The notes beneath the pieces were generated by a model, which did no database searches, was not told the origin of the DNA, and was given only the letters and a program-made list of their open reading frames with translations. A stretch of 64,000 nt of DNA from Eledone cirrhosa (Eukaryota), in assembly GCA_964016885.1 (NCBI GenBank), contig OZ024750.1, positions 26,102,001 through 26,166,000 on the forward strand. Direction: 5' to 3'. Position numbers and translations under genes: made by a program. The stretch's first letter is position 1. Each line of letters begins with the position of its first letter. Of this stretch, positions 36,701 to 42,700 are shown piece after piece.

Positions 36701-39700
36701 CGTGGTATATCTACTAGACATACACACATCATACTAGCTTCGTCCCAGTGGCGTGGATAGGGTTATCGACAATTAGCAGTCGAGTCCTTTGATTTATCTT
36801 AATTTTGTATATATATATATATATATATATATATATATATATATATATATATATATATATATATATATATATATATATATATATATAGTTAAAAGAATAG
36901 AGGTGTAACACACAAGTTATTATATATTGGTAAACGGAATAGAAAAATGCTGACAAATTGTGTGCATGTGTTTGTGTGTGTGGAAATATGATGTTTAATA
37001 TAGAAATCGCTACTACAGGACTACTTTTGAATGAAATAGTTCTAATAGTTCTAAATGTATATATATATACGTATGTATATATACGTACATATATATATAC
37101 ATGCTACTGTACGTCTGTATACATATATGCATGTACGTATACATACTTATATTTAAGTATCAGCCGTACTAAGAGTGAGAAATGAAATTTCATTATTTCC
37201 ATTTATTGTTTTCGGTACGCCCGGCCGACTAACTCACTCGATATGCAAATTAGGTTGCTCAGTCGTTAATATGCATAAGGAAACTATATACTTTCAAAGG
37301 TTCAATCAACTGACAGGAAGGTATACGGTGCTGATGACAGATCATAGCAAACAGCACGGACACTCTATCTCAAAATTATTTTTGAAAAGCATTTAGAAAT
37401 GCGCAACCGGTAAAAACTTAAAAACTTAAAACCACAACTGAATACTAACCCATACAATCACTAATACTCTTTTATTCCTAATTAAACCATTTTTCAACTG
37501 TGAACAATTTGTCAGCATTTTCTATTCCGTTTACCAATATATATATATATATATATACCCATACATATATATATAATAACTAATAAATAGGGAGATGTTT
37601 AAATTATAGCAAGAAGTTTTGAAAGAGTATCAATATTACAGATATATTATCCATTATTTCAATTGACAAGGTATATCATAAACTTGTTACATAATTACTA
37701 TACACACACACACAGATATATATTTATATGTGTGTGTGGGTGTGTGGGGAGTGCGGGTGCGTGTGTGTATCTGCATGTGTGTGTGTGTGTAAATATGATG
37801 TTTAATATAAAATCTTATTTATATTTCAGATTGCCCAGTAGGATGGTTTGGTGTTAATTGTACAGGGGTATGCCATTGTAAGAACAACAACAACTGTGAC
37901 CATCGAAGTGGAAGATGTTCAGATAGATGTACTGCAGATTATGTTGGTGACAATTGCCAGGGTATATCATAAACTTGTTACGTATTAACTATAATTACTA
38001 CACACACACACACACACACACACACACACACACACACACACACGTACAAACACACACACACACACTCACACTCACACATACAAACACACATACACACACA
38101 CACACACATACACACACACACACACATACACACACACACACACACACTCACACTCACTCACACACATTCATACATATATGTGTATCTGTTTCCGCGTGTA
38201 TGTGTGTGTTTGTGCTTGTGTTTGTGTGCATGTGTTTGTGTGTGTGGAAATATGATGTTTAATATAGAAATCGCTACTACAGGACTACTTTTGAATGAAA
38301 TAGTTCTAATAGTTCTAAATGTATATATATATACGTATGTATATATACGTACATATATATATATACATGCTACTGTACGTCTGTATACATATATGCATGT
38401 ACGTATACATACTTATATTTAAGTATCAGCCGTAATAAGAGTGAGAAATGAAATTTCATTATTTCCATTTATTGTTTTCGGTACGCCCGGCCGACTAACT
38501 CACTCGATATGCAAATTAGGTTGCTCAGTCGTTAATATGCATAAGGAAACTATATACTTTCAAAGGTTCAATCAACTGACAGGAAGGTATACCGTGCTGA
38601 TGACAGCTAATAAGCTAGAAACTAGTTCATCGTTCCTTTGTCAGTGTTGAACAAAATGGCACAATGGTTGCCGAACACTGTACGGCTAATAATTCTGGCT
38701 GTTTGTTTACAAACAAACTGAGCATTATAATAAATATTCGGGAAACCCATACGTACAGATATTTATATGTGTGCATGTATGTATATAGATACTACTGTAC
38801 GTCTGTATACATATATGTATGTACCTATGCATACTTATATTTAAGTATTAGCCGTACAAAGAGTGAGAAATGAAATTTCCTTTTTTCCATTTATATATAT
38901 ATATATATATATATAAATGTAATCTGAGTTTTTCGAATATTAATAATAACATTCGATTCGGATGCAATTATGCAAACGCGCTTGAATTTTATAGCCTTGT
39001 CAGTAGAATGAACACTTCATTCTTGCTCCTGTGTTGGCATGCCGACAGAACTGCAAACACTAATGTTTCTGGGTATCACCCTTCGTCAGTACAGCCCGCT
39101 GTTCTCCTGGAACACCGCTATCTCTTTCTCTTTATCTCGTGTGTGTGGGTGTGTGGTGTGTGCAGGTGTGTGCGTGCTGGTGTGTGCGTTCATGTGTGTG
39201 TGTGTGTAAATATGATGTTTAATATAGACATTTTATATATATTTCAGAATGCCGAATAGGAAGGGTTGTTCTTAAGTGTAGTGAGACATGCTATTGTATC
39301 AACAACAAAAACTGTGACAATCGAAATGGAAGTTGTTCAGATGGATGTATGGCAGGTTATACTGGTGACAAATGCCAAAAAGGTATATCATAAACTTGTT
39401 ACATAATTACTATAATTCCTATATACACACACACACAGATATATATATTTATGTGTGTGTTTGTGCGTGTTTGTGTGTGTGGGTGGGGGGTGTATCTGCA
39501 TGTGTGTGTATGTGTGTGTGTGTGTAAATATGATGTTTAATATAGAAATCTTATATATATTTCAGGATGCCAGATAGGACGGTTTGGTATTCATTGTAAA
39601 GGGGTATGCCATTGTAACTACGTCCTTAACTGCGACTACCGTTCTGGAATATGTACAGATGGATGTACTACAGGTTATGTTGGTCACACTTGCCAAGGTA

Positions 39701-42700
39701 TATCATAAACTTGTTACGTAATAACTATAATTACTACACACACACACACACACACACACACACACACACACACACACACACACACACACACACACGCACA
39801 CATACACACACTCACACTCACACACATACAAACACACATACACACACACACTCACACAGTCACACACTCACACACATTCATACATATATGTGTATCTGTT
39901 TCCGCGTGTATGTGTGTGTTTGTGTTTGTGTTTGTGTTTGTGTGCATGTGTTTGTGTGTGTGGAAATATGATGTTTAATATAGAAATCGCTACTACAGGA
40001 CTACTTTTGAATGAAATAGTTCTAATAGTTCTAAATGTATATATATATACGTATGTATATATACGTACATATATATATACATGTTACTGTACGTCTGTAT
40101 ACATATATGCATGTACGTATACATACTTATATTTAAGTATCAGCAGTACTAAGAGTGAGAAATGAAATTTCATTATTTCCATTTATTGTTTTCGGTACGC
40201 CCAGCCGACTAACTCACTCGATATGCAAATTAGGTTGCTCAGTCGTTAATATGCATAAGGAAACTATATACTTTCAAAGGTTCAATCAACTGACAGGAAG
40301 GTATACCGTGCTGATGACAGCTAATAAGCTAGAAACTAGTTCATCGTTCCTTTGTCAGTGTTGAACAAAATGGCACAATGGTTGCCGAATACTGTACGGC
40401 TAATAATTCTGGCTGTTTGTTTACAAACAAACCGAGCATTATAATAAATATTCGGTAAACCCATACGTACATATATTTATGTGTGTGCATGTATGTATAT
40501 AGATACTACTGTACGTCTGTATACATATATGTATGTACGTATGCATACTTATATTTAAGTATTAGCCGTACAAAGAGTGAGAAATGAAATTTCCTTTTTT
40601 CCATTTATATATATATATATATATATATATATATATATATATATAAATGTAATCTGAGTTTTTCGAATATTAATAATAACATTCGATTCGGATGCAATTA
40701 TGCAAACCCGCTTGAATTTTATAGCCTTGTCAGTAGAATGAACACTTCATTCTTGCTCCTGTGTTGGCATGCCGACAGAACTGCAAACACTAATGTTTCT
40801 GGGTATCACCCTTCGTCAGTACAGCCCGCTGTTCTCCTGGAACACCGCTATCTCTTTCTCTCTATCTCGTGTGTGTGGGTGTGTGGTGTGTGCAGGTGTG
40901 TGTGTGTGCTGGTGTGTGCGTTCATGTGTGTGTGTGTGTAAATATGATGTTTAATATAGACATTTTATATATATTTCAGAATGCGCAATAGGAAGATTTG
41001 GATTTAATTGTAGAAAAACATGCCATTGTATCAACAACAAAAACTGTGACAATCGAAATGGAAGTTGTTCAGATGGATGTACTGCAGGTTATACTGGTGA
41101 CAATTGCCAAGAAGGTATATCATAAACCTGTTACATAATTACTATAATTCCTATATACACACACACACAGATATATATGTTTATGTGTGTGTGTGTGTGT
41201 GCGTGTTTGTGTGTGTGTGTTGGGGGATGGGGGTGGATCTGCATGTGTGTGTATGTGTGTGTGTGTGTAAATATGATGTTTAATATAGAAATCTTATATA
41301 TATTTCAGGATGCCAGATAGGACGGTTTGGTATTCATTGTAAAGGGGTATGCCATTGTATCTACGTCTTTAACTGCGACTACCGTTCTGGAATATGTACA
41401 GATGGATGTACTGCAGGTTATGTTGGTTATCCCTCAAGTTATGTTGGTTACATTTGCCAAGAAGGTATATCATAAACTTGTTACGTATTTACTATAATTA
41501 CTACACACACACACACACACTCACACTCACACAATACACACACATACACACACATACACACACACACGCACACACTCACATACTCACACACTTTCACACA
41601 TATATATATATATATGTGTTTCCGTGTGTATGTGTGTGTTTGTGTGTGTGTGCATGTGTTTGTGTGTGTGTGCATGAGTTTGTGTGTGTGTGCATGTGTT
41701 TGTGTGCATGTGTTTAATATAGAAATCGCTTCTACAGGACTACTTTTGAATGACATAGTTCTAATAGTTCTAAATGTATATATATATATATATATATTTC
41801 AATTTAGTAGTCAGTTACAAATATCAAGCTCTAAGAAAATATTTCTGAGCATTACATTATAATGTAAAAAAATATATGATCAACACTACTGTGTTTTTTT
41901 TTTTTGAAAAAAAAAAAAAAAAAAAAAATTATTGTCATTTTGCAAAAAAAAAAACACAGTAGTGTTGATCATATATTTTTTTAAATTATATATATATATA
42001 TATATAGTAGAATAATCGAGTATCGAAAAATCGGCGCACGAGTTCACGATAAACAAAATTCGATATGAGCGGAAGAGGGCTCAATAATTCAGATAAATCA
42101 GAGCTATAACTATCGTTAAAATACCGTCACACACAGAACAAGTCTATAATCAACCGTACGACCGAAAGATTGCGATATGGAAGATTCGGGACATTCAGAA
42201 AAAAAAATCAAAAAATCAATAAATCAAATGAATGTAAAAAGCATAACCGGACCCGCTAGAAAGATGGTAAATCTAGCTTCTTGGGTTTCTGTAAATCCTT
42301 AAACTGCCCTCTATCAGCTCACATAAAAATATATGAGACTTCTAGAAGCCAGCGGACAGGAAAATTTACTTCCTCAACGAGCCTTTGTCCGAACGAATGA
42401 AAAGGCATAACCCAGGCTGAAGGAACGCACGTGTAATTCAGCAAGGGAGATAACCTCTACATCCGCAAAAAATTCGGGAAAATGTGGAAATACACATATC
42501 GAATAAGAGTGCTCAATAGACATGTTAAAATAAACAGGAGCTATTCATCATTTAATAGAATCGACAAAAAATGAACAATAAAATTAACTGGTCAATAGCT
42601 AGGTCTAGAGCTAAATATAGTAGAATAATCGAGTATCGAAAAATCGGCGCACGAGTTCACGATAAAAAAAAATTCGATATGAGCGGCAGATGGCTCAATA

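Follow-up and report, generated by a model that had tools for sequence, protein, structure and literature searches.

Exons that diverge further than their introns are a recognised mark of molecular arms races. In conotoxin genes (PMC3862624) and the SSP genes of the habu snake (PMC6609765), exons are reported to evolve faster than introns. Clusters of single-pass receptor genes with EGF repeats are, in turn, linked to parasite resistance in snails. The genes of the LG5R cluster are described (PMC13712769) as single-pass, with a signal peptide, EGF/Tie2-type repeats, a single transmembrane (TM) helix and a small cytosolic portion that has no known domain, and SudRes1 of Biomphalaria sudanica (PMC12297450) as a set of recently duplicated paralogous MEGF/GBD receptor PTP genes with extracellular diversity. 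The fester family of Botryllus, with its co-receptors, is portrayed (PMC12065747) as a polygenic system of diverse membrane receptors that signal via separate partners. In the cephalopod literature searched, mostly outside subscription journals, no description of such a cluster or of selection on it was found, and the Sepia genome paper (PMC13218726) does not mention EGF, epidermal growth, draper or scavenger.

The window analysed here, a stretch of 64,000 nucleotides from Eledone cirrhosa, lies in a cluster of this kind. Its EGF-repeat exons appear to diverge by episodic positive selection between fixed cysteines, and they probably encode a receptor for non-self recognition of the immune type, a reading to which a probability of about 0.5 is given. 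The cluster is a concrete candidate locus for pathogen or self recognition in cephalopods.

The gene cluster and its predicted product

The exons at 39248 and 40980 are part of one gene in a tandem array of some 20 EGF-repeat genes. The array, a 1.4-Mb cluster, contains 19 exons for the signal peptide and 19 for the TM segment, and another contig bears a further cluster of the family (C2, 310.4-315.3 Mb), sampled over 200 kb of ~5 Mb. The repeat exons are symmetrical, in phase 1, and duplicated both within and between genes. A hydrophobic start exon, judged from the sequence without a predictor, is found in 19 genes, and the family product is predicted to be a type I membrane protein with a signal peptide, 4-32 eight-cysteine (Cys8) EGF-like repeats, a TM segment and a charged tail. 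Venom toxins, one of the options raised in the earlier note, are not supported, since one TM exon was found in all 18 plus-strand genes, whereas such toxins are secreted mature peptides without a membrane anchor.

Gene D, the gene of the window, lies on the plus strand, as do all exons given here. It starts with a signal-peptide exon at 18690..18753 (ATG, hydrophobic stretch, GTAAG donor, phase 1), which is followed by a broken first EGF-like exon at 27675..27796 (end approximate) with the acceptor TG and an internal deletion that shifts the frame. From its sequence, this exon is likely skipped in splicing; other cluster genes hold intact versions of it. A repeat exon at 37830..37961 (132 nt, 8 Cys, phase 1-1) precedes the two units of a 1.7-kb duplication. 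Unit D1 consists of a long intron (38226..39247), exon a (39248..39382), in which the first loop is remodelled, and exon b (39566..39697), and unit D2 of a long intron (39942..40979), exon a (40980..41114) and exon b (41309..41464), the last being 156 nt long with an in-frame 21-nt insertion, a length common to genes B, C and E. The D1 intron contains a high-copy interspersed repeat, with a contig depth of ~1e5 over 38930-39091. Further repeat exons lie at 52530..52664 (0-1/135 differences among genes B-E; donor context AAA followed by GT), 52837..52971 (0/135, identical across genes B-E), 54480..54614, 54788..54922 and 63628..63762. The last, stalk-like repeat exon begins at 63942..64000 and continues beyond the window; it lacks the seventh Cys, and its usual donor is GG. 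The TM exon follows 2.5 kb past the window end (L021:2528-2618), and a stop 25 aa into the predicted tail exon is, besides the broken first repeat, the second lesion of the gene.

The end of the upstream gene C is also in the window. Its predicted cytoplasmic exon (2702..3049), which has splice signals and is in phase with the TM exon, is built of a 12-nt repeat rich in Lys/Glu/Asp and encodes 102 aa before the stop, and its predicted last exon lies at 10933..11021. Two small tail exons near 1463 and 1578, known from prediction only, were dropped, since the TM exon is already in phase with the 2702 exon when they are left out and they have no RNA support; the search for RNA runs gave no evidence of expression, with 21 RNA or RNA-guess rows at a share of at most 0.07.

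The repeats match an EGF-like protein, PDB 6u11 (E=3e-5), and, at E<=0.001, 1730 library proteins, of which the top ones are annotated MEGF/draper/RPTP and the best-matching come from Octopus. Two of the four exons tested gave a Pfam EGF_STAB1-2 match, below the cut-off in both cases (39248, E=6e-4; 40980, E=5e-5). A word-index protein search with a single exon, a query too short for the index, gave no candidates, and a Foldseek search of PDB with the AlphaFold model of a single repeat (pLDDT 68; below 50 in the first 10 residues) gave 0 matches.

Exon and intron divergence in the 1.7-kb duplicate

The earlier note had held that the exons diverge about ten-fold more than their duplicated intron, almost all non-synonymously. 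Its counts were reproduced: 39248-39382 and 40980-41114 differ at 16/135 nt in 12 codons, with 11 amino-acid changes and 1 purely synonymous codon, whereas the introns upstream (38911-39247 and 40641-40979) differ by 3 substitutions in 337 aligned nt and one 2-nt gap, and the whole alignable intron of the duplicate by 18/1199 (1.5%). With Fisher p=4e-7 for the 337-nt and 2e-8 for the 1199-nt intron, the exon excess of 8-13-fold is beyond chance, and it is still significant (p=2e-5) when neighbouring changes are counted together, as 10 events. As a typical value, ten-fold did not hold, for 32 independent pairs average 1.6-fold (exon 4.8% vs intron 3.0%; exon higher in 17, intron higher in 10, ties in 5). 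The contrast at 39248/40980 is an extreme, episodic case. A second pair also has a strong contrast, with 11/131 differences in the exon vs 1/233 in the intron.

Non-synonymous change predominates in this pair when codons are counted, but not as an excess over expectation (Nei-Gojobori pS 0.139, pN 0.117; pN/pS 0.84), and its 2-4 synonymous changes are themselves more than the introns would predict (p=0.047 for at least 2). The differences are patchy: the first 45 nt hold 12 of the 16, the central 57 nt are identical, and 11 of the 16 are adjacent doublets or triplets. Exon 39248 alters two otherwise conserved positions, F6 and G7, and related copies carry a 3-nt indel in the loop that was remodelled in it. 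In the exon b pair, 39566 and 41309, all 5 substitutions in 132 nt are non-synonymous on inspection of the alignment, as had been read before, with an excess over the intron that is not significant (p=0.07); in-frame indels of 21 nt and 3 nt (132 vs 156 nt) had been overlooked.

The 1.7-kb unit has 7 copies in the cluster, with introns 0.1-1.6% apart. The D1 and D2 introns differ from each other at 14/1022 positions, whereas their distances to copies in other genes are no greater (5/1028, for the D2 intron and that of the neighbouring gene C, and 12/1026), and homogenisation in cis was rejected on this ground; nothing directly on point was found in the literature searched on intron homogenisation. 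Within the 7-copy clade, the groupings of exons and introns agree. Exon-restricted conversion, the other possibility raised earlier, does occur in the cluster, where one clear tract of ~85-100 nt, with an acceptor and 5' exon part of the 40980 type, has been copied into G000:C10:26403266, an exon whose intron context differs from that of the donor. Import does not explain the pair itself, because the 40980-type exon is the donor in the clear case and a 39248-specific 23-mer occurs at only 2 places genome-wide, both inside the clade; no donor was found for the 39248 segment. A PHI-type recombination test was not significant (p=0.33-0.39). Conversion is real yet secondary. GC-biased conversion is not supported: the W>S counts show no excess for exon 39248 (5:5), exon 40980 (2:6) or the B3 copy (4:7), and exon 39566 has 12:7.

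Probable selection on repeat and membrane-anchor exons

Diversifying selection, which the earlier note had proposed from the pair, is not borne out by the pair alone but is found in the family. Among 124 unique repeats, the codon models, an own implementation on fixed trees, gave ω=1.70 (M0; p=2e-6 against ω=1), 33% of sites at ω=4.1 (M2a; LRT 247) and, for each half with a tree of its own, ω of 1.50 and 1.85; the p-values are overstated, because conversion makes tree-based counts non-independent. Isolated single-base changes (70 synonymous vs 441 non-synonymous) reach 1.83 times the expectation (p=4e-7). With each allele counted once, the repeats give only p=0.067. Diversity at positions 1-2 of the non-Cys codons (π 0.19 and 0.21) exceeds that of four-fold sites (0.078), which is near the value for the intron flank upstream (0.093). 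All six unfiltered Cys are unchanged in 144/144 repeats.

What is unusual is that selection extends to the TM exon, which has a single copy per gene. Across 12 of the 19 copies, its π is 0.318 at position 1 and 0.196 at position 2, as against 0.000 at four-fold sites (8 sites) and 0.041 in the downstream intron, ω is 3.7-5.3 (p<3e-5), and there is no doublet excess. The signal-peptide exon (π 0.038, 19 copies) and the last exon (0.028, 13 copies) are at intron level. No match directly on point was found in the literature searched on selection in TM domains. The signal can be tested directly and points to specificity encoded within the membrane.

Phase-1 exons are thus seen to be duplicated within and between genes, giving 4-32 repeats per gene, amino-acid changes outnumber the neutral expectation in repeats and TM exon, and short conversion tracts shuttle exon pieces among genes; positive selection for recognition likely drives the change between the cysteines episodically. 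The varied EGF loops may be ligand-contact surfaces, and the tail, which lacks tyrosine motifs where parsed, may signal via a partner protein encountered within the membrane. Such pairing would account for selection on the TM exon. A more far-reaching version, put forward only tentatively, sees a cephalopod-specific hypervariable receptor system of ~35 genes, in which EGF loops and TM helix are selected, the TM sequence is a pairing code, and repeat number and conversion add combinatorial diversity. If true, receptors would be matched with each other or with co-receptors via their TM sequence, and the cluster would be a candidate for an immune or self/non-self recognition locus of the octopus.

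The selection may also be real and serve another task, such as self-recognition of neurons, recognition of gametes or in sperm storage, or chemosensing by the skin and suckers, which is possible but not probable. The evidence of selection is silent on tissue, no immune motif was seen in the 3 tail exons parsed, and expanded neuronal surface-code families, such as the protocadherins, are known from cephalopods. Against this, conflict between hosts and parasites typically leaves an ω of about 4 along with gains and losses of genes. The nearest described clusters of like architecture map to snail parasite resistance (PMC13712769, PMC12297450).

It is doubtful that substitution was not accelerated at all, the exons being old or imported by conversion and the introns homogenised or merely dating the duplication. 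The conversion tract, the patchy differences and raised synonymous divergence of the pair, the second contrasting pair and the partial sampling of C2 would fit. This explanation is already weakened, since old or imported exons should have diverged synonymously as well, but variation at four-fold sites does not rise above that of introns, and the TM exon shows the excess too; the distances among introns, the two matches of the 23-mer and the PHI-type test also count against it.

That relaxed constraint in a decaying copy, together with mutations arising in clusters (multi-nucleotide or by slippage), mimics selection is quite improbable. Same-branch adjacent changes are about twice the expectation (78 vs 34), the pair is rich in doublets, related copies have an indel in the equivalent loop, gene D bears lesions, and rare alleles are at the neutral ratio (7 synonymous to 26 non-synonymous). 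However, relaxed constraint could not raise the rate above that of introns, the excess persists after removal of all adjacent and multi-hit changes, the doublet excess is mainly intra-codon (37 and 26, against 15 that span two codons), ω of the TM exon exceeds 3 without a doublet excess, and the internal Cys are retained throughout. That collapsed or mis-joined copies make the introns seem identical is very improbable, even in so repetitive a region: the seven intron copies differ mutually in substitutions and microsatellite length, the 39248 exon type was found three times with distinct sequences, the single 200-N gap is 0.8 Mb away, and assembly errors would not leave Cys codons and four-fold positions untouched, while the contigs of one outside sample (X22-X24, 3 runs), which over 38930-39720 contain the family and C/E-type exon b alleles and lack several 39248-specific bases and any spanning piece, weigh little, because contigs drop rare variants.

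Comparison with described receptor systems

MEGF10, Draper and CED-1 have cytoplasmic NPxY and YxxL motifs and an N-terminal EMI domain. Unlike in these proteins, NPxY and YxxL are absent from all three Eledone tail exons that were parsed, 12 of the 15 predicted tails being unparsable. In one gene, the 2.2-kb intron between signal exon and first repeat, the shortest of its kind, holds no in-frame candidate for an EMI exon. An Octopus sinensis protein, P0006, labelled 'protein draper' by automatic annotation, has a Cys8 repeat that is 72% identical to exon 40980 across 46 aa, and its tblastn matches in 1.46 Mb are confined to Cys-rich stretches. The RPTP-T-like P0008 of Octopus vulgaris reaches 74% identity to the repeat; in a tblastn search of the 1.46 Mb, the PTP and GBD parts of P0002, P0008 and P0010 had no match at E<=0.1, which sets the cluster apart from P0008 and SudRes1. 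With SudRes1 it shares recently duplicated paralogous MEGF genes with a diverse extracellular part.

The conotoxin and SSP genes resemble the cluster in the conserved signal exon, the diverse Cys-scaffold exon and the similar introns of young paralogues, but those proteins are secreted, whereas the Eledone proteins are predicted to be membrane-anchored and multi-repeat, with the anchor exon diversified as well. The fester family, with Ig/Sushi domains and several TM segments, is an analogy only, drawn without sequence comparison.

By analogy, the Eledone cluster may work like the snail SCARF/MEGF-like TM1 receptor clusters, a likeness from which the immune function is inferred. It shares with LG5R the signal peptide, the tandem EGF-like repeats, the single TM and a small, domain-free predicted tail. 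It differs in its 4-32 exon-per-repeat modules, its Lys/Glu-rich tail of 12-nt repeats, the lack of a galactose-binding domain among the matches and the measured ω>1, TM exon included. Clusters of the LG5R type are linked to a resistance phenotype, and that of Eledone is known from its sequence.

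Gene D and the surrounding cluster

The window (G000:C10:26102001-26166000), which sits in a 3.0-Gb assembly, contains 11 phase-1 exons of 132-156 nt with eight Cys each. A profile built from nine of these 11 repeat exons matches an EGF-like PDB entry and 1730 library proteins, and the proteins most identical to the region are an RPTP-like protein of Octopus vulgaris (74% over 39 aa) and 'protein draper' of O. sinensis (72% over 46 aa). With a signal-peptide exon at window 18690, a TM exon 2.5 kb beyond the window end and, 3' of it, two exons predicted by splice signals alone (a repeat exon rich in Lys/Glu and a short final one), gene D is modelled as a type I membrane protein. 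Its first repeat is broken and an early stop lies inside the predicted tail exon; the broken first repeat exon (window 27675; copies at C10:26012862 and 26197360 of the same contig) is common to three neighbouring genes and missing from a fourth. The last repeat exon (window 63942-64000 and its paralogues) usually lacks the seventh Cys and the usual GT donor, and an upstream GTAACA site would turn it into an in-phase stalk exon. The window also holds a 617-nt direct duplication within an intron (42000-43230) and several LINE-like retrotransposon fragments, identified on visual inspection of sequence and GC content (4600-10000, 13800-16000 and 22000-23550).

Across 1.46 Mb of C10 there are 19 signal-peptide exons, 177 repeat-exon matches, 15 first-repeat matches and 19 TM exons, and the 18 plus-strand genes carry 4-32 repeats and a single TM exon apiece. 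One gene (G000:C10:26837910-26910900) has 32 repeat exons, 31 intact, the other plus-strand genes having 4-14, and one (G000:C10:27034000-27113700) runs in the opposite direction to the other 18. Six nearly identical units of 2.56 kb, with two exons apiece (G000:C10:27238600-27251600), reflect an internal expansion of very recent date or else an expansion made in the assembly. Searched with the TM exon, the genome yields 38 matches: 20 on C10, 16 on C2:310.4-315.3 Mb and 2 on C1149. Repeat, TM and tail exons of the same types also occur in a 200-kb sample of C2, and the Lys/Glu-rich tail repeats of this second cluster (G000:C2:310.4-315.3 Mb plus C1149) are longer.

Amino-acid divergence in the repeats and the TM exon

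Gene D carries two copies of a 1.7-kb unit of two exons with long introns, D1 (39248, 39566) and D2 (40980, 41309). As the earlier note had counted, exons 39248-39382 and 40980-41114 differ at 16/135 nt, with 11 amino acids changed and one purely synonymous codon, against 3/337 and one 2-nt gap in the intron upstream; all alignable intron of the duplicate differs at 18/1199 (exon versus intron, Fisher p=2e-8). The second pair has the five substitutions reported (5/132), together with two in-frame indels of 21 and 3 nt that had been overlooked, and its excess over the intron reaches p=0.07. The ten-fold excess claimed from these exons stands for the first pair and fails as a general rate: in 32 independent pairs, drawn from 81 exons that follow a long intron, exons differ by 4.8% and introns by 3.0% (17 above, 10 below). 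Since exons 52530 and 52837 are, moreover, nearly unchanged across four genes, the ten-fold value reflects a burst in a few repeats. In the first pair, 12 differences fall within the first 45 nt and none within the following 57, and by itself the pair has pS 0.139 above pN 0.117. Adjacent changes are about twice as frequent as expected and two normally conserved residues are altered in exon 39248; slippage or relaxation may therefore have a share in the differences of this pair. The family is present in one outside sample, which does not show several D1-specific bases.

Removal of 25 stalk, broken or misplaced exons and 8 by length from the 177 matches left 144 repeats, 124 of them unique. Six Cys are invariant in 144/144, the other two, the first and last, being demanded by the filter. 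Codon models, written as our own code and run on fixed FastTree trees, gave M0 ω=1.70 (p=2e-6 versus 1, overstated like all family-wide p-values because conversion leaves counts non-independent); dN/dS on the full alignment, the check that the earlier note had proposed, is accordingly above 1. M2a places 33% of sites at ω=4.1, and the repeat halves, each with its own tree, have ω of 1.50 and 1.85. Pairwise pN is 0.158 and pS 0.117, and isolated single-base changes (70 synonymous, 441 non-synonymous) stand at 1.83 times expectation. When every allele is counted once, p=0.067; singleton alleles (7 synonymous, 26 non-synonymous) are at the neutral ratio. Diversity (π) at four-fold sites, 0.078, is about that of the intron flanks (0.093 upstream; 0.174 downstream, where the flank extends into a microsatellite) and lower than at positions 1-2 (0.19, 0.21).

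Gene D's TM exon (L021:2528-2618) and its 18 C10 paralogues are 15-26% divergent in most gene pairs, with flanking introns at about 2-4%. The exon is single copy per gene. Among the 12/19 copies of 91 nt, π is 0.318, 0.196 and 0.166 at positions 1, 2 and 3, and 0.000 at 8 four-fold sites versus 0.041 in the downstream intron; ω is 3.7-5.3 (p<3e-5), and isolated changes are 9 synonymous and 80 non-synonymous. Diversity is 0.038 in the signal-peptide exon and 0.028 in the last exon. The TM exon lacks the synonymous divergence that an old exon among homogenised introns would have. No other result is as strong or as unexpected as its excess, which comes from few sequences with only 8 four-fold sites.

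Gene conversion and the seven-copy clade

The 1.7-kb unit exists in seven copies spread over four genes, whose upstream introns are pairwise 1/1018 to 16/992 apart and whose first exon differs at 0 to 27 of 135 positions. In one copy (G000:C10:26022196), a five-base A run in the exon is swapped for a five-base T run, micro-inversion-like, with two residues changed. Exon-restricted conversion from other copies, which had been offered as an alternative to selection, does occur in the cluster: the exon at C10:26403266 retains its own intron type and has acquired a D2-type acceptor and D2-type bases over the first ~60 of the exon, which makes the clade the donor there. Two D1 bases are found in 0/140 exons outside the clade, a D1 23-mer has two places genome-wide at ≤1 mismatch, both inside it, and a PHI-type recombination test was not significant. 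The tract itself, ~85-100 nt (G000:C10:26403220-26403330), sets a 40980-type acceptor and 5' exon inside a different intron context. Recent homogenisation of the D1 and D2 introns in cis is ruled out as the cause, since they are no closer to each other than either is to copies in other genes. A secreted toxin, the venom option of the earlier note, is rejected for the C10 family, each of the 18 plus-strand genes having its one TM exon.

Proposed mechanism and comparison with known systems

The locus combines exon and gene duplication on a fixed Cys frame with an amino-acid excess in the repeats and TM exon and occasional conversion. The EGF-like loops would touch a changing ligand and the predicted tail may signal via a membrane partner, with pathogens or parasites the most likely driver.

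NPxY and YxxL tail motifs are features of MEGF10/Draper. Both are absent from the 3/15 tail exons parsed, and in this the C10 genes differ from MEGF10/Draper proper. They are similar to the SudRes1 MEGF paralogues (PMC12297450) but lack the PTP and galactose-binding domains of SudRes1, none being found in the 1.46-Mb C10 region. In how it works, the cluster parallels the SCARF-like TM1 cluster LG5R of Biomphalaria (PMC13712769). The locus itself is apparently undescribed; the supplements of these papers may contain selection analyses of the snail genes. The same evolutionary pattern is already known in conotoxin and snake gene arrays. The observed feature is genuine and its signal of an ordinary kind; the unusual element of the locus is the TM exon.
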